This document shows positions 6,513-57,238 of a stretch of 64,000 bases of DNA, piece after piece. The notes beneath the pieces are model-generated. The model was not told the origin of the DNA, did not search any database, and saw nothing but the letters and a program-made list of their open reading frames with translations. A program made the position numbers and the translations under genes. Position 1 is the stretch's first letter. Every line of letters begins with the position of its first letter. The DNA comes from TPA_inf: Saccharomyces (lineage: Eukaryota), in NCBI GenBank assembly GCA_000146045.2, contig BK006945.2:320001-384000 (forward strand), written 5' to 3'.

Positions 6513-7415
6513 TTACCACAGATAGAAAAACATGAAAGCAGCACTTACAAATAGTATAATAGTGAAAGTTAATAACGTAATATTTTTGACCTTCTGCCAC
6601 CACATTATTTCTTTTATATTGACCGCTTTGCGCCTAAATTTATTACTGCTGCTATTTAGTTGGGAAGTTTTATCCACCAATAAAGAAACTCTTTCTTGTC
6701 TCTCCAAGAACTTGTCGATGTTATCGTTCATTATCTGGATGACGTCCTTTATTTGGTCTTCGGTGGCATCCCCGATGTCACTTATAGTGTTCTGACCATT
6801 CCCATTACTAGATTGGCCATTTCCAGAACTATTTAAAGTTTGGTTACGGTATTCGACCAGCTCTTCATGGAAAGAGTCTAGTATTTGACCTACATGCGAA
6901 CTTAAAAGTTCGTTTGTAGCGTTGGACTCGTATTCCTGCAGCCCACTTAGTATCCTGATGGGCAAAATCTTGGGCATATCTACTAATGTGAAGCAAACGT
7001 ACACAGTTTTGGGGTCATGGTCATCCGTGGAGTAGAAACAATCGAATCCGTCGATGAGATTCATTGACATCTTGGTAACTTTGTTCCCCTTGATCGGAAC
7101 TACTTTGGGTAATACCATATCCATGATCAAATTATGGAAAATGACCGGCGTTATCTGCTCGTTTGCTGAAGTTATTGTACCATAGTTTTCGTTTTTCTGG
7201 AACGGCTGGAAACAACTAGATATTGTTTCACCATTTTTTATAACTTCCACATAACTTACTAAGACCATATGCAAAATCAAGCAAAATGGAACGTTAGTCT
7301 ACTGAATGTAACATAGTAAAATTATGGCATGGGGGGATGAGCATTCGCATAATCCCTTTTTTAAACATTTGTTAATTGTGTAGAAATATTTATACATACC
7401 ATTAAAGCGTTTCAT
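6513..7415 (-). CDS. NYV1: Vacuolar v-SNARE (longin/synaptobrevin-like), spliced: exon1 7400..7415 (ATGAAACGCTTTAATG), exon2 6513..7258; product begins MKRFNVSYVEVIKNGE
   Basis: The ORF track gives only exon 2 (6513..7280, with a TTG pseudo-start). On the minus strand there is an upstream ATG at 7415-7413 followed 16 nt later by GTATGT (7399-7394). A GACTAAC branch-like site sits at about 7293-7299 and a TAG acceptor at 7261-7259. The spliced reading restores the known MKRFNVSYVEV N-terminus. The C-terminal hydrophobic TM anchor (IILFVSAAFMFFYLW) is typical of SNAREs. Confidence 0.85.
7259..7399 (-). other. NYV1: Spliceosomal intron of NYV1 (141 nt, GTATGT...GACTAAC...TAG)
   Basis: The canonical yeast 5' splice site GTATGT begins 1 nt after codon 5. 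The 3' TAG lies 34 nt downstream of a GACTAAC branch-like sequence. Confidence 0.8.
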
Positions 7416-12589: not shown

Positions 12590-15500
12590 ATGCCTAATCC
12601 GAATACAGCAGATTACTTGGTGAATCCAAATTTCAGGACCAGTAAGGGCGGATCTTTATCGCCGACGCCAGAAGCTTTCAACGACACGCGAGTTGCTGCA
12701 CCAGCCACTCTTCGCATGATGGGCAAGCAATCTGGACCAAGAAATGACCAGCAACAAGCACCACTGATGCCTCCTGCAGATATCAAACAGGGCAAGGAAC
12801 AGGCAGCTCAGAGACAAAATGATGCATCGAGGCCTAATGGCGCCGTGGAATTAAGGCAATTTCATAGAAGATCTTTGGGAGATTGGGAGTTCCTTGAAAC
12901 GGTTGGCGCAGGCTCTATGGGTAAAGTTAAATTGGTCAAGCATCGTCAAACAAAGGAAATTTGTGTAATAAAGATTGTTAATAGGGCTTCCAAGGCTTAT
13001 CTCCATAAACAGCACTCTTTACCTTCCCCAAAGAATGAGAGTGAGATATTAGAAAGACAAAAGCGGTTAGAAAAAGAAATTGCGAGGGATAAAAGGACTG
13101 TTAGGGAAGCCTCTTTGGGCCAAATCCTTTACCATCCTCATATCTGTCGTTTATTTGAAATGTGCACTATGTCAAACCATTTTTATATGCTTTTTGAATA
13201 CGTTTCCGGTGGACAGCTGTTAGATTATATTATTCAGCATGGCTCATTAAAGGAACACCATGCGAGGAAATTTGCCAGAGGTATAGCTAGTGCGCTGCAA
13301 TACTTACATGCCAATAATATTGTTCATCGAGATCTGAAAATTGAGAATATAATGATATCTAGTTCAGGTGAAATTAAGATCATTGATTTTGGTCTTTCCA
13401 ACATTTTTGATTATAGGAAACAATTACATACGTTTTGTGGTTCCTTGTACTTTGCAGCACCAGAACTATTAAAAGCGCAGCCATACACAGGACCTGAGGT
13501 AGATATTTGGTCGTTTGGTATTGTTCTTTATGTCTTGGTCTGCGGTAAAGTACCATTTGATGATGAGAACTCAAGCATTTTACATGAAAAAATAAAAAAA
13601 GGTAAAGTAGACTATCCTTCACACTTATCCATTGAAGTTATATCTTTATTAACCAGGATGATTGTTGTCGACCCATTAAGAAGAGCAACATTAAAGAATG
13701 TCGTTGAGCATCCATGGATGAACAGAGGATACGATTTTAAGGCTCCATCATATGTTCCTAATCGTGTTCCATTAACCCCTGAAATGATAGATAGCCAAGT
13801 TCTGAAGGAAATGTATCGCCTAGAATTTATTGACGATATTGAAGATACAAGAAGATCATTGATCCGATTAGTAACTGAAAAGGAATACATCCAACTTTCC
13901 CAAGAATACTGGGACAAATTATCCAACGCCAAGGGGTTGAGTTCAAGTTTAAATAATAACTACCTAAATTCAACGGCACAACAAACCTTAATACAAAATC
14001 ATATTACAAGTAATCCATCGCAAAGTGGTTATAATGAACCAGATAGTAATTTTGAAGATCCTACTTTAGCATATCATCCATTACTATCAATATATCACTT
14101 GGTTTCAGAAATGGTTGCACGGAAATTAGCGAAGTTGCAAAGAAGGCAAGCATTGGCCCTGCAAGCGCAAGCTCAGCAAAGGCAACAACAGCAACAAGTA
14201 GCACTTGGCACTAAGGTCGCCTTAAATAATAACTCCCCGGATATTATGACCAAAATGAGGAGCCCTCAGAAAGAAGTAGTACCTAATCCTGGTATTTTTC
14301 AAGTGCCGGCAATTGGAACATCGGGAACCTCAAACAACACTAATACCTCAAACAAACCTCCACTGCATGTAATGGTTCCTCCTAAACTAACAATACCGGA
14401 ACAAGCGCATACTTCTCCAACATCTAGGAAGAGTTCCGACATTCATACGGAATTAAATGGTGTTTTGAAATCAACACCAGTCCCCGTGTCTGGCGAATAT
14501 CAGCAACGTTCTGCTTCACCCGTAGTAGGTGAACATCAGGAAAAGAATACAATAGGCGGCATATTCAGAAGAATATCACAAAGTGGACAATCTCAGCATC
14601 CCACACGGCAACAGGAACCTCTTCCAGAAAGAGAACCTCCAACATATATGTCAAAATCAAATGAAATTTCCATCAAAGTACCGAAAAGCCATAGTCGTAC
14701 TATATCAGATTATATTCCTAGCGCTAGAAGATATCCATCTTACGTGCCAAATTCTGTTGATGTAAAACAGAAACCCGCTAAAAACACTACCATAGCACCT
14801 CCTATAAGGTCAGTATCACAAAAGCAAAACAGTGATCTTCCAGCTTTACCTCAGAACGCCGAACTAATTGTTCAAAAACAACGGCAAAAACTATTACAGG
14901 AAAATCTCGACAAATTACAAATTAATGATAATGATAACAACAATGTGAACGCTGTAGTCGATGGTATCAATAATGATAATAGTGACCATTATCTCTCCGT
15001 TCCGAAGGGTCGTAAGTTACATCCTAGTGCAAGGGCTAAATCGGTGGGGCATGCTCGTCGTGAATCTTTGAAATTTACTAGGCCGCCTATACCAGCAGCC
15101 CTTCCGCCATCAGATATGACAAACGATAACGGCTTTTTGGGAGAGGCAAACAAGGAGAGATACAATCCTGTTAGCAGTAACTTTTCGACCGTTCCTGAAG
15201 ATTCTACCACATACAGTAACGATACTAACAATAGACTGACTTCGGTGTATTCTCAGGAGCTTACTGAGAAGCAAATTTTGGAGGAAGCTTCAAAGGCACC
15301 CCCCGGGTCTATGCCATCAATTGATTATCCAAAGTCAATGTTTTTGAAGGGTTTTTTCTCTGTACAAACAACCTCCTCTAAACCATTGCCTATTGTTCGT
15401 CACAATATCATATCTGTTTTAACAAGAATGAATATTGATTTCAAAGAAGTGAAAGGCGGGTTCATATGTGTCCAACAAAGGCCATCTATTGAGACTGCAG

Positions 15501-16033
15501 CTGTCCCTGTTATAACCACTACTGGCGTGGGTTTGGATTCCGGAAAGGCGATGGATCTGCAAAATAGTTTAGACAGTCAATTATCATCCAGTTACCATAG
15601 TACAGCGTCCTCAGCATCAAGAAATAGTTCGATAAAACGCCAAGGTTCTTATAAGAGGGGCCAGAATAATATACCACTAACACCTTTAGCGACCAATACA
15701 CATCAAAGAAATTCATCTATCCCAATGTCTCCAAACTACGGAAACCAAAGTAATGGTACATCAGGGGAACTATCTTCCATGTCATTAGATTATGTTCAAC
15801 AACAGGATGATATTTTAACAACATCAAGAGCCCAAAATATAAATAACGTAAATGGTCAAACAGAGCAAACCAATACTTCTGGTATAAAAGAAAGGCCTCC
15901 TATTAAATTTGAGATTCACATTGTAAAGGTTCGTATCGTCGGCCTAGCAGGTGTACATTTCAAAAAGGTTTCTGGTAATACGTGGCTATATAAAGAATTG
16001 GCATCGTATATTTTAAAAGAATTAAACCTATAG
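12590..16033 (+). CDS. KIN2: Ser/Thr protein kinase of the MARK/PAR-1/Kin1 family with C-terminal KA1-like domain
   Basis: The 1147-aa ORF has a kinase domain ([10 protein letters not shown] Gly-loop, HRDLKIEN catalytic loop, DFG, APE). It has a long low-complexity middle and a C-terminal KFEIHIVKV...ILKELNL segment. Confidence 0.9.
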
Positions 16034-16230
16034 ATACGTTGTTCTTACTAAATATTTCAACGTGTGTCTTTCAATTTTTATTATCTAATATTTATCTTTT
16101 TTTAATATTATAGTATAATTTATTTAAGCTGAGATCTGCTTTCTTTAATCTTTCATATGATGAAATAATAGTTCTACATAAATCTATAAGAATAATAAAT
16201 AAAGTAAAACAACTGCAAAAAACATCGATG

Positions 16231-17265
16231 TCATCCAGGATCCTTGAAAGATTTCACTCTGGAGAAGAAAAAAGATTTCTCATTTCTCAACGAACAGTTA
16301 GATGCATTCCCTTCCTTATCCACTACAATTGAACTTAGCCATTTCAACCGTTGATATCTCTTATTGCCTTGATTCTTGATTTGGAATTCTTCGATAAACG
16401 TATACTTTTCATCTGACCTTGTTATCTTTAAATGACCAAAATCATAATCAAATCCGAGGCTCCAATAACACATATGACTATGCCTGGGTTTGTTCTCTTT
16501 GGAGAAGTGCTTCACGACAGCGCTAGGTTCATCTGTAGAAAGTAATCTCAAACATTGGCCGTTCTCATAAAATCTGAAATACCTGTAATAGGTGATCATG
16601 TGAACTGGCTTTAAAAGAGATAACGAACTTTCTGCATTGGAACCGTATCTTACATAATTTACTACACTGATGTAAACACCTTCGAATTTAATATATGGCC
16701 TTTCCCTTAACATACGATAATCATCACCCCGCCATATTTCCTTTTCAAAGGTATTTATATCGGTGATTCCGTTAAGATCCATTGCCATTTTGTCGTATAT
16801 TTGCTTAGAATATATGTACTTCGCGAAAGTTTTAAATGGCACAGAATCGTGGAAGCAAAGCTTGCTAAAGGTGGAACAAGTCATCGACAAATTCACCCAA
16901 GATTCACCAGACATTAATATAACTTTTTTAATAATTCTCAGTAAAATGTCGTCAGGCAAGATTTCCAGAATCCAGCAGGGTTGAAGTTCAGCATTTTCTT
17001 CAACAGATAAGTCATCTTTACCGGTTTCATTTTGTTCATCTGGAGCATCAGTAGTCATTGATAATCCCGATAGTTTTTTGTGCAGCATCCACTCATCAAG
17101 TATTTTTTTTCTGTACAGTGATTCCACATTATCATGGATTTTCAATGCACTTCGATAGAAGTTTATAGCATCTGACATTGACCCATCCTTCTCTTTCAGT
17201 ACACCTTTTTCCCAAATAGCAATAGCCTCTTTAGCCCTAGGGTCCTTTTCATAATCTACTATCAT
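16231..17265 (-). CDS. HRT3: F-box protein, putative SCF substrate adaptor
   Basis: The 344-aa ORF contains an F-box-like LQPCWILEILPDDILLRIIKKVI segment. It matches YLR097C in size and position. Confidence 0.8.
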   Translation of the reverse strand: MIVDYEKDPRAKEAIAIWEKGVLKEKDGSMSDAINFYRSALKIHDNVESLYRKKILDEWMLHKKLSGLSMTTDAPDEQNETGKDDLSVEENAELQPCWILEILPDDILLRIIKKVILMSGESWVNLSMTCSTFSKLCFHDSVPFKTFAKYIYSKQIYDKMAMDLNGITDINTFEKEIWRGDDYRMLRERPYIKFEGVYISVVNYVRYGSNAESSLSLLKPVHMITYYRYFRFYENGQCLRLLSTDEPSAVVKHFSKENKPRHSHMCYWSLGFDYDFGHLKITRSDEKYTFIEEFQIKNQGNKRYQRLKWLSSIVVDKEGNASNCSLRNEKSFFFSRVKSFKDPG

Positions 17266-17526
17266 TTGCTCCTTGAGTTTAGCTTATGGAACACATGTGT
17301 CGTCGCCAAAGATGATGGGGAATGTTTGCTTTTATCTTGCTCAGTCGATTTCGCTATCTAGGAACTACAATCCTTTTTTTTGTCATTTGGAAGGCTCTTT
17401 AAAATTCCGAATCGATAAGTTCGGAGGTGGGAAAGGATAGCGGTATATTCCTTCCCAAATAAAAAGGCTACAAACACATTACATAAAGAATATTTGTTCA
17501 AGTAAACATATCCTCTTCACTCAAGA

Positions 17527-19473
17527 TTACTTCGACAAACCATCATTGGTGTTTCCACCAATCAGCATATCAATCTCATTCAATAAAGTAAAGTCAAAAT
17601 TGTACTCTAAGGCAAAATCGTTACCGTGAGATAGAGTCCCTAATAAATCCATAGTTTCTGAATTATGCAAAGCATCTTCAGAGTTTTCTATGAATTTTCT
17701 AGCAAGTTCGTAATTCAGGGTAGGCGCACTTAAAAAATTTAAGAAGTCTTGTTTTCTATCCTTTTTAATCAAGTTGGACTTCATGCATTGGATGGCTAAA
17801 ATCGCAGAATAAATCATGTAAATTGTGGCCTTCTCAAACGTCTTAAATTTATTTTTCCAAACTTTTAAAAGATAATACAGTTCATCAACATAACCTTCAA
17901 CCAATTCCCGGCTTTGTTTGATTTCGTATATGAAAGGTTTATTATAGGAAATTAGCACGATATAGTAATGAAACCATACGTAAGCTATGGTTGGGTTAAA
18001 ATCTGTCATTTCCATCAATGACCTCTTGGTCCATTGTAGTTCAGGGGGCAAATCCCTTCTCCAATTGTATACCTCCAGATTAAATTTGGCCAAGTATTCA
18101 CTCCTTTGAAGTAGAGTTTCGTTTGGGCTGAAAATCTTGGATGCAAAAATCTCCGTTATTCTCGATAACACAATCAGTTTCTTCAAGGGGTTTGCAGTGG
18201 ACAATATTACTTTTGGGTCATATATGTACTCCTCTATACCAGTCTCAATTTCAGGTAGCTCGTCTGTTTCTGGAACAGTGGAATTGGACAAACGCAAGGA
18301 AGTTGATCTTCCAAAGAGGATCGCTATTAAATGATCAGCAATGTAGCAGCCCCAATAAATTCTACTTCTCACTTCAAAATCCATTATTGACAGCTCGTCT
18401 TCATAAACATTACTCCATGCTTCTGGATTCAAATGTAGGCCGATTTCGTGGGCAATCCTAAATGCCAGCCCAGAAAGATACCAAGCCATGGGGTTTTCTC
18501 CGCTTCCAATGTCATAAAATGCCAAACACAATAGAGTCTGGATGATTGCTAATTTCGAAGAGGACGACGATTCAGCTAACGAAGAATCTTCCAGTTGAAA
18601 AATTTTTTTGAGTACTATCGTCTTGGCTCTTTGATAAAACACTTCAGATTGTTGAAAAAGCTCAGTTTCTGATTTGTATGAAATCAAAGATCCCAATGCA
18701 GCGATTGCAAATACCAATTCTTCGGAACAATAGTAACTTTTAGTGTTAGTATCACCGAAGAAAGCACTTAAGAAAGTTTCTCTATGAATGAAAAGGTAAT
18801 GTCCCGGGTATAGCCATTTGAAAAAGAGTGACAACGATCTTAAGATAAGGGGACTTCTTGATAAATTTTTTAGGCTGACCTGCTGTTGCTGATATCTTGT
18901 GCTTCCATCCGTCTTCTTTTTTATTATAGACAAGGAATTTGATGGATATATACTATTTGTGCCAACTGGTGGAGGGCTCTCGGAAGGCATTTTCTTGGTG
19001 AACGCATCAGACTCATTCTCATCGTTGCTTTCAGATGATGGTAGTGCTGATTGTGCTGTTTCGCCATACTTTAAGATTTTTTCATTAGGAGCATCACCAT
19101 GATCACTGTTGTTTTTTAACGAGGAGAGAGCATTGCTAGCAATTGTGGAAGACGAGGAACTTAATATTTGCAACTGTTCTTTCAAAGACCGAATCTGGCT
19201 CTGTAAAGCTTCTACGTAAGTCGTAGAATATCTTTTGTTCCTTAAGTCTTGTTGAGTGAATACACATTCGGTACGAAACTTGATACAGTTTGAACAAGGC
19301 TTTTCCATGTTACATTTCCTTCTTCTTCTACGGCAATTCTGGCATGCTAGTTTTCTCTTCCTGGGCACGTTGTTATTATTCTGGTCATTATCTGTCACAG
19401 ATTTCTTTAAACTGGACGGAAGGGAGGGTGTTACCGTTGTTGTTAAAGGTGGAGGTGAAGGCTCCAACATCAT
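17527..19473 (-). CDS. CHA4: Zn(II)2Cys6 binuclear-cluster transcription activator (Ser/Thr catabolism)
   Basis: The 648-aa ORF has an N-terminal CQNCRRRRRKCNMEKPCSNCIKFRTEC (Cx2Cx6Cx6Cx2Cx6C) motif followed by a coiled-coil and a fungal TF middle homology region. Confidence 0.85.
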   Translation of the reverse strand: MMLEPSPPPLTTTVTPSLPSSLKKSVTDNDQNNNNVPRKRKLACQNCRRRRRKCNMEKPCSNCIKFRTECVFTQQDLRNKRYSTTYVEALQSQIRSLKEQLQILSSSSSTIASNALSSLKNNSDHGDAPNEKILKYGETAQSALPSSESNDENESDAFTKKMPSESPPPVGTNSIYPSNSLSIIKKKTDGSTRYQQQQVSLKNLSRSPLILRSLSLFFKWLYPGHYLFIHRETFLSAFFGDTNTKSYYCSEELVFAIAALGSLISYKSETELFQQSEVFYQRAKTIVLKKIFQLEDSSLAESSSSSKLAIIQTLLCLAFYDIGSGENPMAWYLSGLAFRIAHEIGLHLNPEAWSNVYEDELSIMDFEVRSRIYWGCYIADHLIAILFGRSTSLRLSNSTVPETDELPEIETGIEEYIYDPKVILSTANPLKKLIVLSRITEIFASKIFSPNETLLQRSEYLAKFNLEVYNWRRDLPPELQWTKRSLMEMTDFNPTIAYVWFHYYIVLISYNKPFIYEIKQSRELVEGYVDELYYLLKVWKNKFKTFEKATIYMIYSAILAIQCMKSNLIKKDRKQDFLNFLSAPTLNYELARKFIENSEDALHNSETMDLLGTLSHGNDFALEYNFDFTLLNEIDMLIGGNTNDGLSK

Positions 19474-28180: not shown

Positions 28181-29005
28181 GCTCCTTCTTGAGTCCTTCG
28201 TACTTATTGTCTTTTCAGCGTCGTGTTACAATGAAACGTTTTAGCATATTGAATTTCGATGGAAGTTCAAATGTTTTATGCACCGAAATGAAATACTAGA
28301 GCAAAGAGATGTTAGTGAAAGCACCAGCTAATATAGCTCTTTCAAATTTACGTGAAAAAGTTATGTGTGGCAATATAAATCTATAGCAAGAGTGGCTTCT
28401 ATAAAACATTTTTGACAAGAAATAAAATTCAGATACCGTTGTAGTCTTGAGAAATCATTGTGCTCACATCGATTAACTTCGAGCAACATAAATCATGCTA
28501 TCATCATTAAAATAAAGTGGAAGTATTAAGAACAGATATAATAGCACGAGAAAAAACTCGTTCAACTAAGTCTAGACACACCTCCTGGTGTTATTTAGTC
28601 CGTTCTCTTAACAACCAAAGCCTACGAGCTCTCAAACAGCTCTTTTGTTTTAACTTCCTATAGAACTGAATGGGAAACTTGCATCTTGAAGAAAATTTTT
28701 CTCTTTAAATATCTGACTGAAGTATTGATCCCTTCAAAAAAAAAAAAAAAGAGAGTTGGTTACCCATATGGGAATAATATTTCTTAGGGCTAATTGACAA
28801 AGGATTGCTAACAGAAAATGCAAAGGACTAATAACTTGAATCATTTTTATATCAGGTTTATATAGGTATACGTTCAGTCTAATTAATAATTTATAGTTTA
28901 CAGTAGTTTTTTACAGTAGTTTTTTTTTTTTTTTTTCAGTTCCATGATTTTTTTGTTCCTTTGATTCGTGTAGTAAACCTCCTCTTCTTGGTTTTCACGA
29001 TATAC

Positions 29006-45809: not shown

Positions 45810-46134
45810 TGAGAATTGGGGGAATAACTTGATAATTGTTGGGATTCCATTGTTCGTAAACGCAATAATATTAGGTATATAGAAGATACTAAATGTTCTC
45901 TCCGAGGATATAGGAATGCTCACAATGGAATCGATATATTTCTACATAATAGTATTGAGATTATTCCTCTTTTAGTTTTATATAATTCATTATCCTATTA
46001 CATTATCAATCCTTGCATTTCAGCTTCCATTAGACTTAATGACTGTTTCTCAATTTTTATGTCATCTTCCTGGACCTCATGTGATACTATACCAGTAGCA
46101 TGAATACTACTGAATCGATGATACTTTAGAGTTT
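45810..46134 (-). mobile_element. Solo Ty1/Ty2 delta LTR (diverged, about 325 bp), reverse orientation, about 100 bp upstream of SNR6
   Basis: The plus strand reads TGAGAATTGGGGGAATAACTTGATAATTGTTGGGATTCCATTGTTCG...TATAGGAATGCTCACAATGGAATCGATATATTTCTACATA...CATTATCAATCCTTGCATTTCAGCTTCC...TTTCATTGCAACA. This is collinear with the reverse complement of the delta consensus from ...CCCATTTCTCA back to TGTTGGAATAGAAA. Confidence 0.75.
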
Positions 46135-46204
46135 CATTGCAACAGTTTCAACACAGCCTGGCATGAACAGTGGTAAAAGTATTTCGTCCACTATTTTCGG
46201 CTAC

Positions 46205-46234: not shown

Positions 46235-46346
46235 GTTCGCGAAGTAACCCTTCGTGGACATTTGGTCAATTTGAAACAATACAGAGATGATCAGCAGTTC
46301 CCCTGCATAAGGATGAACCGTTTTACAAAGAGATTTATTTCGTTTT
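46235..46346 (+). ncRNA. SNR6: U6 spliceosomal snRNA gene (RNA polymerase III transcript, 112 nt)
   Basis: GTTCGCGAAGTAACCCTTCGTGGACATTTGGTCAATTTGAAACAATACAGAGATGATCAGCAGTTCCCCTGCATAAGGATGAACCGTTTTACAAAGAGATTTATTTCGTTTT. It contains the invariant ACAGAGA box and AGC triad and ends in a T-run Pol III terminator. Confidence 0.92.
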
Positions 46347-46466
46347 TTTTTTATCATCGAGTGAAGTATCGTGACTTGTACATTTGAAGATACCCAGCGT
46401 ACAGCAGTGTATCTTTATCTTCCTGTATGATATAGATAACTAACATCTCGAATAGAAAATTGTCTC

Positions 46467-52927: not shown

Positions 52928-53768
52928 ACGTGTTTTTTTAATGTCCCTAACCACTCATTCTTACTTCTTTTTGATGTTTCTTTTTTTTATGGTACTCATA
53001 AAAGTATTTACGTATATAGTTGTATAGAGGAAACAAAAAAAAAAAGATAAAACTCAATTACAAAGTAAAGTGGACGTATTTCGATCATGATTTTTTTCTG
53101 TTTTAACCGCATTGGATTTTCTTGTAAAACTGGAAGAAAAAGGAAACTAAAAAGTCAAGAAAGACCTTTTTAAGACTCCAAGAACCGTCACTTATGGCGT
53201 ATTGTTTGTTTATCAGCACTTCTATCTTCGATAAAGGTTTGTCTGTCTTATATTGTTTACATTTCAAGTCTAATTCTGTGCTTTTACCGAAGAGGAATTT
53301 TCATAAATACGGAGAAAATATAAAAAAAAAGTAAATACAGAAAATAGAACAGTTGAAGCAGAAAAAGAGAACTTGCTAAATAGCTGTCTCACCCAGACAA
53401 GCGTATACTTACCACATTTAGTCTTTTGCAATCTCATTCTTGTTGAAGATAACTATTACATTCACGGACTGTGGCAGAAACTTCTCCTTAAGAAATTAGG
53501 AACTCATAAAAGGAATCAGCAGCTCTATGTAATATCAAAATCTTTTCTATTTTTTGTATTTATGCTCTCATTCATTAATTCTAACGGAGCTATTTATTAT
53601 AAACAGTGAAGATATAAACCATATGTCTAATAGAACAAATTTCAAAAAGTCTTCAATTTCGTGGATGTGGGAATGCATTTATTAAAAATAATGAATGGCA
53701 ACATACGACACCAAAATAGGAACACTTTCAGTACTATACAGAACTACGGATCTTAGTTTATTGAGTTT

Positions 53769-53960
53769 TGAGAAATAGGTTGATATGGAGACAATTTCTT
53801 AGCGTTATTAGAGGTTATAAGTATACAGAATAACCTACGAGTAGTCCTCAAGAAGATAAGACTCTGCAAAAGGTATCAATAATTTTACTTAATCATAGCA
53901 CTATTTCTTCTTTCGCTTTGTACAGCAGCTCATATATTCCATTACATTATCAATTCTTAC
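53769..53960 (-). mobile_element. Truncated, diverged delta-like (Ty1/Ty2/Ty4-family) LTR fragment in reverse orientation, abutting the sigma element
   Basis: TGAGAAATAGGTTGATATGGAGACAAT aligns to the delta rc TGAGAAATGGGTGAATGTTGAGATAAT. ...GTATACAGAATA...CCTCAAGAA... aligns to GTATACAGAATATACTAGAAGTTCTCCTCGAGGA. TCCATTACATTATCAATTCTTAC aligns to TCCTATTACATTATCAATCCTTGC. Similarity decays before the sigma insertion. Confidence 0.4.
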
Positions 53961-53998
53961 ATCGTAGCATAAAACACTAAGATTCAAAAATAGAAAAC

Positions 53999-54338
53999 TG
54001 TTGTATCTCAAAATGAGATACGTCAGTATGACAATACGTCATCCTAAACGTTCATAAAACACATATGAAACAACCTTATAACAAAACGAACAACATGAGA
54101 CAAAACCCGTCCTTCCCTAGCTGAACTACCCAAAAGTATAAATGCCTGAACAATTAGTTTAGATCCGAGATTCCGCGCTTCCACCACTTAGTATGATTCA
54201 TATTTTATATAATATATAAGATAAGTAACATCCGTGAGTTAATCTGATAAACCGTTTTGACAACTGGTAACTTCCCTAAGACTGTTTATATTAGGATTGT
54301 CAAGACACTCCGGTATTACTCGAGCCCGTAATAAAACA
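53999..54338 (+). mobile_element. Ty3 sigma solo LTR (340 bp) flanked by 5-bp target-site duplication AAAAC, 16 bp upstream of tRNA-Arg
   Basis: It begins TGTTGTATCTCAAAATGAGATACGTCAGTATGACAATACGTCA and continues through ...CCACCACTTAGTATGATTCATATTTTATATAATATATAAGATAAGTAACATCCGTGAG...CTCGAGCCCGTAATAAAACA, a near-identical match to the sigma consensus. AAAAC occurs at 53994-53998 and again at 54339-54343. Confidence 0.85.
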
Positions 54339-54354
54339 AAAACAATAAATCTTG

Positions 54355-54427
54355 TTCCTCGTGGCCCAATGGTCACGGCGTCTGGCTACGAACCAGAAGA
54401 TTCCAGGTTCAAGTCCTGGCGGGGAAG
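54355..54427 (+). tRNA. tRNA-Arg (anticodon ACG), 73 nt, intronless
   Basis: TTCCTCGTGGCCCAATGGTCACGGCGTCTGGCTACGAACCAGAAGATTCCAGGTTCAAGTCCTGGCGGGGAAG. The acceptor stem TTCCTCG/CGGGGAA has one G-U pair. The anticodon stem is TCTGG/CCAGA with loop CTACGAA. The T-arm is CCAGG-TTCAAGT-CCTGG. A downstream TTTTTTT terminator is at 54431-54437. Confidence 0.9.
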
Positions 54428-54943
54428 ATTTTTTTGCTCCGACAATTATGTCGCTACCCTTCAGTTTTGTTGAAAATGATGCTTTTATCGTTAACTTTAC
54501 TTATCTTTATTGTTTGCAAGATTACTATTAATATTAAAGAGGGTCTAGCAAGGATACTGCGATTGTTTCTAAATATTTCAACTTTCTACGTTATTCATCT
54601 TTAGGAAGCTAAAAAGCATTCAAAAGATTACTATGAAGTTAATCTTTAAACATAGTTTGATGAGCGTCTATGCAAATAGAATAACTTCAAAAAATTTTCT
54701 ATTCCATTTTTGGAAAGCCCCAAAAAGCTATATTCTATAATTTCTGAATCTTATTGTGCTTGTGGAGGTCACCCCAGTTTTCTATAAATTATTATTCAGC
54801 TATTATCCCAATACGACTAAAGGTATTGAGATTCACGGATATTTTTTCCCCTGCAACTTTCACAACTGGAGGGCTCTGTTTCTTGATTTTCTTTTTGTCA
54901 TATAAACATATCTTAGCGCGATTGCTAACAAATAGTATAGATA

Positions 54944-57238
54944 TCATAATTTTTCCTCATCCTGCACACAATTACCTATAGCAGCGTCATTCGCACCGCC
55001 CTCCTCATTGGATTTTTTAACTGTATTTCTCGTTTTAGATGAGTCTTCAACATTTCTATCGTTTTCATAAATATCAGTTTTACTGTCGGAATTTTTATTG
55101 CTCTCAGGACCACCTTCAATATCTTTATCTGCAACGGTTTCGTCCTCATTAAAATTTTCTGCATTACCCTCAAAATTCTGTTCATTTTCTTTATCATGAT
55201 CAGTGTTAATGTTCGTAACGTCTGTAAAACCATTGCTAAAATCTTGACTGTCTTCCTTATCGCCATTTTCATCGCCCTCACCGTCATCGCCATTTTCATC
55301 GCCCTCACCGTCATCGCCATTTTCATCGCCCTCACCGTCATCGTCATCGTCATCGTCCTCACTATCATCGTCATCACCACCATCATCATCATCATCCTCA
55401 GAGTCCTCATCAGTATCATCATCTTCATTGTCCTCACTATTTCCCACCTCTTCACTTTGTTGATCTGTCTCCGCATCAGGTTTATAATGTAAACCCAAGC
55501 CCATCATAGCTTTCTGTATCGCGTTCGATGTTTTACTTCTGTTTTTGAGATCTTCTGTGGATTCAGTAACATCTTCATTAGCAGTATTCTTTGGTTTATT
55601 GAAATATTCCTTCCATGAATTCCATAAGTTGGCTGCTGGCTTGTCTGTATTCTTTCCAGGATTTACAGAAATTTGGGAAACAGACTTTTTTGACTCGATG
55701 CTTTCCTGGTCTTTGATATCCTCCTCGCTTTGATGACCATTTTTATTGCTTGAAGAGTTGCTAGAGCTTCTTTTTAAATTATGAAATGTGGCCAAAAATC
55801 GTTGCTGTAATAGAGACAGAGTGTCGGCACCGTTATATATATGCTTCGGAGGAAACAAGTCGAACAATCTATCATCTGTTCTTGAGTTGAATATCAGAAA
55901 ATTTTGAGTCTCTTTCCAACTCTGAACCCAATTCAAATTGAATAAATGAACGGGATTGGAATTTAGCATATCCTCAGGTATAGTCTTCAAAGCTTGATCA
56001 TTCTCTTTATGCAGGTCCAAATAATCACTTAATTTAACACTGGAAAGTAACCCCGTTAAATAGTCCTCGAATTGCCACCTAATGAAATCCTCACTGCCTT
56101 CAAATTGAGAGTTTTTTGGAGTTTCATCATCATTTTCGTTCCATGTGTCTGATACAATTCCAGATATAGATTCAATCCATTTTTTATCATGACTTGACAA
56201 TTGGAGGACGGGGTTCAAAGTCTTGTCCAGAATATCTACAGTGGAATTGTCTGTATTGACAAATATGTGGCACAGTTCCTCCTTTTGTTCAGCAAGCAAT
56301 GTGTTGGAACTTCCAATCATAAAAAACAAAGTACGTTCTGACCGTATGTCATTCATTTGCTGCAGTGGAGTATAGGGTGAAAATAGTCCACCTTTTTCGA
56401 AAATCGGTAATGGAAAACCTAAGAATCTCAACACTGATTCTCGATTGCTTGATTTAAACGAGTCCACAACATTTAATTTCGAAATATCCTGAAACAACTG
56501 AGGACTGCCAGAATCCTGCAAATTTGACATCAAGTCCGGAATTAAGCTGATCAGACCGAACTGTAAATTACACAAAGCTTCCACGTCGTTGCCGTAAACT
56601 ATAATTTTTTTTTCAAGCATAATTGCTTTCAATAAGACTAAAGCGTTTCTCTTAAAATCATGTAGTATCTTTCTCAGACATAACCCAATATAAAGACGAT
56701 TTTCGGCATTTCTGACCAATGATGCAGGCGTGTAAATCGACTTCAGGTTTTCGTATAAAGACTGGATTATCTTCCTGTCCCCAAAATCATGCTGCAAGAA
56801 AAAAGCATTAGTCACAATACTAAGTTTGTCCTTGATTTGACCGAAGATTGGTTGCCTTGAGATGACTACAATTGCCTTCTGTACAGTAGATCGTGTTACA
56901 TCCTTATCTTTAGTGACCAATTCATCACTCTTTATCTGTCTCGAGCAAGATATGGCAAACAAAGTCGTGTTGTCATTGATGCTATCATCACTCAGATCAG
57001 TTGCCCCGTTGGGAGGGCTCCTTTGTCTTCTTTCATCATATAGTAATGTGAAATAAGTAAATGTTTCTTCAAACGAGTGAGAACCATCAGGAAGGGCCTG
57101 GAAGGGTAAATTTGGCCATAGTTCTGCACTTTGGGTGCCCTCAGGTAAGCCATACCAGTATTCTATTTCAGGGCCTCTTTTGTGATGAAAGTCCACAAGG
57201 CAGATACCGAAGATGACTGCTTCCTCGTGTTCATCCAT
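54944..57238 (-). CDS. AVL9: Late-exocytic-pathway protein (Avl9/DENN-like N-terminal domain) with long acidic, repeat-containing C-terminal tail
   Basis: The 764-aa ORF matches YLR114C in size and position. Its C-terminal 200 aa are a D/E/N-rich tail containing (GEGDENGDD)x3. Confidence 0.85.
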   Translation of the reverse strand: MDEHEEAVIFGICLVDFHHKRGPEIEYWYGLPEGTQSAELWPNLPFQALPDGSHSFEETFTYFTLLYDERRQRSPPNGATDLSDDSINDNTTLFAISCSRQIKSDELVTKDKDVTRSTVQKAIVVISRQPIFGQIKDKLSIVTNAFFLQHDFGDRKIIQSLYENLKSIYTPASLVRNAENRLYIGLCLRKILHDFKRNALVLLKAIMLEKKIIVYGNDVEALCNLQFGLISLIPDLMSNLQDSGSPQLFQDISKLNVVDSFKSSNRESVLRFLGFPLPIFEKGGLFSPYTPLQQMNDIRSERTLFFMIGSSNTLLAEQKEELCHIFVNTDNSTVDILDKTLNPVLQLSSHDKKWIESISGIVSDTWNENDDETPKNSQFEGSEDFIRWQFEDYLTGLLSSVKLSDYLDLHKENDQALKTIPEDMLNSNPVHLFNLNWVQSWKETQNFLIFNSRTDDRLFDLFPPKHIYNGADTLSLLQQRFLATFHNLKRSSSNSSSNKNGHQSEEDIKDQESIESKKSVSQISVNPGKNTDKPAANLWNSWKEYFNKPKNTANEDVTESTEDLKNRSKTSNAIQKAMMGLGLHYKPDAETDQQSEEVGNSEDNEDDDTDEDSEDDDDDGGDDDDSEDDDDDDDGEGDENGDDGEGDENGDDGEGDENGDKEDSQDFSNGFTDVTNINTDHDKENEQNFEGNAENFNEDETVADKDIEGGPESNKNSDSKTDIYENDRNVEDSSKTRNTVKKSNEEGGANDAAIGNCVQDEEKL
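55259..55339. repeat. AVL9: Perfect 27-bp tandem repeat x3 (ATCGCCATTTTCATCGCCCTCACCGTC) inside the AVL9 coding region, followed by (ATCGTC)n
   Basis: The three units 55259-55285, 55286-55312 and 55313-55339 are identical. They encode the DGEGDENGD repeat on the minus strand. Confidence 0.9.

Follow-up and report, generated by a model that had tools for sequence, protein, structure and literature searches.

Upstream of a tRNA-Arg(ACG) gene on Saccharomyces cerevisiae chromosome XII lies a solo Ty3 LTR, or sigma element, which almost certainly records insertion of Ty3 at the Pol III initiation region of that gene and later reduction to a single LTR, next to a delta fragment that is an older, fixed remnant. 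The stretch of DNA analyzed here (the window) comprises 64,000 nucleotides of that chromosome, and positions are given in window coordinates unless stated otherwise. That Ty3 integrates position-specifically where Pol III starts transcription has been textbook knowledge since about 1990. The sigma at the tRNA-Arg gene and the delta remnants are already known and annotated, and nothing about them is new biologically. The locus serves as a positive control in that a first-pass annotation, working from raw sequence without tools, recovered a real mobile-element scar together with its exact boundaries and its mechanism; the claims of that annotation were followed up with the analyses described below.

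The tRNA-Arg(ACG) gene and its setting

tRNA genes were called with ARAGORN and with Infernal/Rfam. ARAGORN reported a single tRNA in the whole window, a tRNA-Arg with anticodon ACG at 54355-54427 on the plus strand, and the same interval scored 60.8 bits against Rfam RF00005 (threshold, 29), which bears out the tRNA-Arg proposed there on first reading. We take this gene to be tR(ACG)L. A box-like and B box-like motifs were recognized by eye inside it at 54362-54372 and 54406-54416, respectively, and a run of 7 T follows on the same strand at 54429-54435; such a T run after a tRNA gene is the Pol III terminator. At every locus that we examined in S. cerevisiae, S. kudriavzevii, and S. uvarum, the gene sequence is 100% identical. 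Immediately upstream, 11 nt of native 5′ flank remain (54344-54354, plus strand; AATAAATCTTG), and they are conserved in S. uvarum (AACAAATCTTA) and S. kudriavzevii (AATAAATCTTA). Pol III initiation is expected in the region ~10 nt before the first base of the mature tRNA (PMC5911963).

The tRNA/sigma locus sits between HOG1 and AVL9. Open reading frames around it encode a protein kinase of 435 amino acids (aa), an Avl9-domain protein of 764 aa, and a CPSF100-like protein of 859 aa. The kinase sequence is identical in many chromosome-scale S. cerevisiae assemblies, and the 764-aa protein is named Avl9p (YLR114C) of S. cerevisiae in databases. AVL9 itself (54944-57238, minus strand) contains a 27-nt periodic repeat at 55232-55441 that encodes the acidic Asp/Glu-rich tract of Avl9; strain alleles of the protein range from 749 to 766 aa, and the common difference between 755 and 764 aa corresponds to one 27-nt repeat unit. 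Elsewhere in the window, Rfam models identified the C/D-box snoRNA snR79 at 28427-28511 (minus strand, 86 bits), which has no connection with the sigma but aided the assignment to chromosome XII, and the U6 gene, SNR6, at 46244-46347 (plus strand).

Identity of the sigma element

The element upstream of the tRNA gene occupies 340 bp at 53999-54338 on the plus strand, in the same orientation as the tRNA. It opens with TGTTGTATCTC at 53999 and closes with CGTAATAAAACA at 54338; the longer end sequences are TGTTGTATCTCAAAATGAGAT at the start and CCCGTAATAAAACA at the finish. To obtain a Ty3 reference, we used Ty3 Gag as a protein query; a match at 99% identity led to a contig of strain VL3 (L011). 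The gag protein encoded there is named "YIL082W-A-like protein [S. cerevisiae VL3]" at NCBI and carries the PF19259 Ty3_capsid domain. The order on this contig is a tRNA-iMet gene (minus strand), a 17-nt spacer, a 341-bp LTR, the PBS TGGTAGCG, and gag. The sigma aligned end to end with the 5′ LTR of this full-length Ty3 over 341 columns at 98.2% identity, with 5 mismatches and 1 gap of 1 nt. The segment had been read as a Ty3 LTR from the letters alone, with 70% identity set as the lowest value acceptable, and the alignment upholds that reading.

The form of the element is also that of a Ty3 LTR, which is ~340 bp long and bounded by 8-bp terminal inverted repeats, TGTTGTAT...ATACAACA. The 5′ repeat (53999-54006) is exact. 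The 3′ repeat (54331-54338) matches at 7 of 8 positions: a C-to-A substitution at 54334 converts ATACAACA to ATAAAACA. Judged from the aligned copies, this mismatch is a private change of the kind that would be expected in a decaying solo LTR, and a four-way alignment with the L011 LTR and two further copies gave 4 private changes, this one among them, in the 340 bp of the window sigma. Neither a PBS nor a polypurine tract (PPT) adjoins the sigma, which is therefore a solo LTR, and no second sigma copy was found in the window. Set against full-length Ty3 (YIL082W-A/Ty3-I type, Metaviridae), the window element has the LTR identity given above, the terminal TGTTGTAT, the 5-bp duplication, and the spacing of 16 to 17 nt from a tRNA in common; it differs in consisting of the LTR alone, without PBS, gag, pol, or PPT, and in carrying the one substitution in the 3′ repeat and a 1-nt deletion.

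We also compared the window with the supplement of Carr, Bensasson, and Bergman 2012 (PMC3511429), in which the chromosome XII coordinate equals the window coordinate plus 320001. The sigma is chrXII_s295+_TY3 of that study, named YLRWsigma2 in SGD-derived annotation, at 374000-374339 (window 53999-54338) on the plus strand of S288C chromosome XII. It is listed there as a solo, polymorphic element that belongs to the active clade and occurs in 15 of the 23 strains that could be scored. The window sigma is this very element, and we found no difference between the two. The RepeatMasker library used in that study contained Ty1, Ty2, Ty3, Ty3p, Ty4, and Ty5 (PMC3511429); because all of these families were represented, its calls independently support Ty3 rather than Ty3p for the sigma and Ty1/Ty2 rather than Ty4 for the delta remnant described below.

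These comparisons leave next to no probability for the idea that the sigma belongs to the related, inactive Ty3p (Ty3_1p) family. Degenerate Ty3p solo LTRs do occur in S. cerevisiae, also at tRNA genes (PMC3511429, PMC5911963). However, Ty3 and Ty3p share only ~82% identity overall (PMC5555480), far from the 98.2% measured to the full-length Ty3 LTR; divergent Ty3-like LTRs of S. kudriavzevii are only ~67% identical to the window sigma; and the library that held both families returned TY3, active clade (PMC3511429). On sequence grounds, then, 53999-54338 is assigned to Ty3 proper as a sigma LTR.

Target-site duplication, empty sites, and allelic states

The sigma is flanked on the plus strand by AAAAC at 53994-53998 and again at 54339-54343, the latter covering positions −16 to −12 relative to the mature tRNA 5′ end. 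The interval from sigma to tRNA (54339-54354) is 16 nt. Ty3 is known to insert at a distance of 16 or 17 nt from the 5′ end of a tRNA, creating a 5-bp duplication (PMC5555480), and within 1 to 4 bp of the Pol III start site (PMC5911963). The sigma, at 16 nt from a Pol III gene, has this spacing. Other Ty3-family LTRs in our material lie 15 to 17 nt from tRNAs: that of L011 at 17 nt and two in S. kudriavzevii (L018) originally at 16 and 15 nt.

The first-pass annotation had treated the two pentamers as the true element boundaries and the 16-bp spacing as a Ty3 integration signature, and had suggested looking in other strains for an empty site with a single AAAAC. Such a site was present in two assemblies, L021 (strain BJ4, GCA_903819145.2) and L019 (GCA_947369975.1), where the tRNA comes immediately after ...caacaatagAAAACaataaatcttg; sigma is absent there, and AAAAC occurs once. 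Because the empty alleles hold a single AAAAC, the sigma boundaries and the 5-bp duplication are demonstrated rather than deduced. Among the strains lacking sigma, none was seen with zero or two copies of AAAAC or with any other junction, and we saw no sign that the tRNA gene is a pseudogene left unbound by TFIIIB/TFIIIC.

Ten S. cerevisiae assemblies carrying the HOG1 protein of the window were all sigma bearing, and their sigma sequences were 100% identical; an apparent 86-bp size difference in one of them (L005) is a run of Ns, an assembly gap inside the sigma, and not a variant. Further allelic states were found through assemblies with variant AVL9 proteins. In one of these (L020, GCA_947370505.1), a reverse-orientation sigma at 6891-7231 is 97.7% identical to that of the window, has GAAAC on both sides, and lies 16 nt from the tRNA. 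Its opposite orientation, its own duplication, and its 16-nt spacing identify it as an independent insertion at the same position. Tfc1 permits Ty3 insertion in both orientations (PMC5911963). Three short-read assemblies reached via AVL9 orthologues (L014, L016, and L017) break inside the tRNA gene, and the upstream site lies outside those contigs. Within S. cerevisiae, the locus has three allelic states: forward sigma, reverse sigma, and empty. The orthologous locus of S. uvarum (L015) is without an LTR, and there AAAACAACAAATCTTA precedes the identical tRNA gene.

The sigma is a young insertion for which S. cerevisiae is still polymorphic. The opposite polarity, in which the sigma would be old and ancestral and the empty strains would have arisen by its exact excision through recombination of one AAAAC copy with the other, is very improbable. 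A 5-bp direct repeat could in principle mediate such an event, and the empty alleles look exactly like its product. Yet the outgroup, S. uvarum, is empty; the sigma has only its 4 private changes per 340 bp and belongs to an active, short-branch clade; and both empty assemblies carry several substitutions in the flanking intergenic sequence (96.6 to 99.2% identity to the window). Furthermore, a 5-bp repeat recombines far less often than Ty3 inserts, and the reverse sigma of L020 shows that new insertions do hit this site.

A decayed delta remnant beside the sigma

On the other side of the sigma from the tRNA, a search with nhmmer and a delta profile identified a truncated Ty1/Ty2 delta LTR, the 3′ two-thirds of the element, at 53769-53983 on the minus strand. 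The profile was built from eight delta LTRs, drawn from the Ty2-type element of L007, solo copies in L001, L018, and L019, and the copy upstream of U6. Read as 53983-53769, the remnant corresponds to positions 126 to 333 of the 334 in the profile (E = 1.3e-16; aligned part, 53962-53771), and the 3′ terminus of the LTR, ...TCTCA, lies at 53769. Strict local alignment to an active delta recovered only 29 nt; softer scoring and the profile were needed. Pairwise identity to active delta is 62 to 66%, the alignment score of 35 compares with 13.4 ± 1.8 in shuffled sequences (~12 standard deviations [SD] above), and the delta core AAGGATTGATAATGTAATAGGA is recognizable.

A reverse-orientation, delta-like fragment had been proposed on first reading at 53769 to ~53960. 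Its identity and its starting position stood, and only its end had to be moved, to ~53962-53983. The fragment is a partial LTR that belongs to Ty1/Ty2 delta by homology that includes the LTR terminus. It is not a complete ~334-bp LTR with TG...CA ends and a 5-bp duplication: the first ~105 to 125 nt, at the 5′ end, are missing, and for this reason no duplication can be identified for it.

Could the fragment instead be a Ty4 tau remnant, or a chance similarity between AT-rich sequences? The low identity to active delta would allow it, but the profile match extends over 208 positions and reaches the LTR terminus with the E value given above, the score exceeds that of shuffled sequences by the margin stated, and the delta core is in place; against tau in particular, RepeatMasker with a Ty4-containing library called the fragment TY1 (PMC3511429). 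We regard either origin as highly improbable and retain the assignment to delta. The published entry is chrXII_st151-_TY1 at 373770-373969 (window 53769-53968) on the minus strand, a solo, inactive element fixed in 25 of 25 strains (PMC3511429). Every S. cerevisiae assembly that we examined, empty-site assemblies included, likewise carries the remnant, which is therefore older than the sigma.

Two further minus-strand matches to the delta profile were obtained in the window. One is a second delta remnant, older and shorter, at 53407-53602 (nhmmer E = 1.2e-6; profile positions 148 to 304; aligned part, 53582-53428; envelope, 53602-53407). The first-pass annotation does not mention this remnant. 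In the published supplement it is chrXII_st150-_TY1, at 373480-373534 (window 53479-53533) on the minus strand, fixed in 23 of 23 strains (PMC3511429). The other match, 46144-45811, is to a copy that is itself part of the profile. It is a complete solo delta at 45811-46144 (minus strand), ~100 bp upstream of U6, and is YLRCdelta5, listed at 365832-366145 (window 45831-46144, minus strand) as a solo delta upstream of SNR6 (PMC3511429). Assembly L001 (GCA_000975675.2) has two further delta copies between REX3 and SNR6.

Compared with delta solo LTRs such as YLRCdelta5, the remnant beside the sigma is similar in corresponding to delta positions ~126 to 334, in lying upstream of a Pol III gene, and in being fixed; it differs in its heavy divergence, in the loss of its 5′ part, and in being unusually close to the tRNA. 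In the empty-site allele, its end is ~26 to 47 nt from the tRNA, a shorter distance than a Ty1-type insertion would lead one to expect. A deletion that came with earlier insertions could plausibly account for this proximity.

Whether the sigma had gone into the older LTR or beside it was initially left undecided. Comparison of the flanks places the insertion beside the delta remnant, 10 to 15 nt from its end, and not into it. AAAAC and the next 11 nt match S. uvarum, which has no LTR there, at 14 of 16 positions, and the sigma target was therefore native tRNA flank. True nesting, with the 16 nt between sigma and tRNA derived from delta, draws on the short distance between the end of the delta envelope and the insertion point (only 10 to 15 nt) and on the untraced origin of 53984-53993. 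It is contradicted by the conservation of positions −1 to −16, AAAAC included, in LTR-free S. uvarum and of positions −1 to −12 in S. kudriavzevii; moreover, delta sequence does not continue on the tRNA side of the sigma, where there is room for 16 nt only. Nesting accordingly carries very little weight with us, and insertion beside the remnant is the reading used below.

Model for the origin of the locus

The sequence of events that we propose begins with TFIIIB (Brf1 and TBP), which recruits Ty3 integrase (PMC5911963) and which would have been bound just upstream of the tRNA gene. Ty3 would then have integrated at the Pol III initiation region of tRNA-Arg(ACG), with a 5-bp staggered cut by the integrase at AAAAC (−16 to −12) leading to duplication of the pentamer. 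Starting from what was presumably a full-length precursor, LTR-LTR recombination would later have deleted the internal part and left the solo 340-bp sigma. Recombination between LTRs appears to be frequent in the active Ty3 clade, given that most of its members are solo LTRs (PMC3511429). The reverse-orientation fragment is a much older, fixed, and decayed Ty1/Ty2 delta that would have come from the looser upstream targeting of Ty1-type elements.

This analysis provides direct observations of the LTR identity, the exact boundaries and duplication, the polymorphism, repeated insertion at one and the same nucleotide position, and the homology of the remnant to delta. The anatomy of the locus and the population and comparative data fit the Ty3 targeting model at every point, and nothing substantive stands against the explanation by Ty3 insertion.

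Repeated insertion at the locus in S. cerevisiae and S. kudriavzevii

The suggestion that retrotransposons had used this tRNA-proximal region repeatedly was confirmed by the reverse sigma of L020, by Ty2-type elements in two S. cerevisiae assemblies, and by three Ty3-family LTRs in S. kudriavzevii. One of the Ty2-type elements (L007:11847-17806, GCA_029991515.1) is a strain-specific, full-length Ty element of 5960 bp that inserted at the equivalent of window 53461-53465, ~890 bp upstream of the tRNA. It has the duplication TTCAC, and identity between its delta LTRs is 99.7%. The Gag protein begins MESQQLHQNPH, which we take to be Ty2-like. The other, at L019:7035-10286 in an assembly without sigma, is a Ty2-like element that interrupts the old delta remnant (insertion point, window ~53848-53851); at least 3.2 kb of it can be aligned with the L007 element, at 97% identity.

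In S. kudriavzevii ZP591 (L018, OX365891.1), the region 12657-19416 contains a stack of three Ty3-family insertions upstream of the orthologous tRNA-Arg(ACG) gene, whose flank is conserved at positions −1 to −12. Nearest the tRNA, at a distance of 15 nt, is a full-length Ty3-like element (12745-17851) with the duplication GATCA. Its two 374-bp LTRs are 100% identical to each other, the polypurine tract is GAGAGAGAGGAAGA, and the PBS is TGGTAGCG; Pol is intact (1290 aa), with Ty3 peptidase, RT, RNase H, and integrase domains. This element is young. Directly behind it, at 17858-18198, is a reverse-orientation sigma with the duplication TGATC, which occupied positions −16 to −12 before the later insertion, and the original spacings were accordingly 16 nt (TGATC) and 15 nt (GATCA). 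With every further insertion at the start site, the earlier elements were displaced upstream. That Ty3 targeting is precise and recurrent is illustrated by this stack in a sister species, along with the empty site and the reverse allele of S. cerevisiae.

The reverse sigma of S. kudriavzevii is 96.8% identical to the S. cerevisiae sigma and sits in genuine S. kudriavzevii flank. The two copies are far closer than neutral divergence between the species would permit, a hint that Ty3 of the S. cerevisiae type may recently have crossed between species, for example through natural hybrids. We put this forward tentatively, as a possibility that is on balance doubtful, along with a count, which includes the S. 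cerevisiae alleles, of at least five independent Ty3-family hits that would have fallen within the same 2-nt window. Both the Ty3 and the Ty3p lineages have been recently active in S. kudriavzevii (Carr et al., PMC3511429). The near-identical S. kudriavzevii sigma is the sole mildly novel thread of the present analysis. Further out at the same S. kudriavzevii locus are an older sigma-like LTR and then delta remnants.
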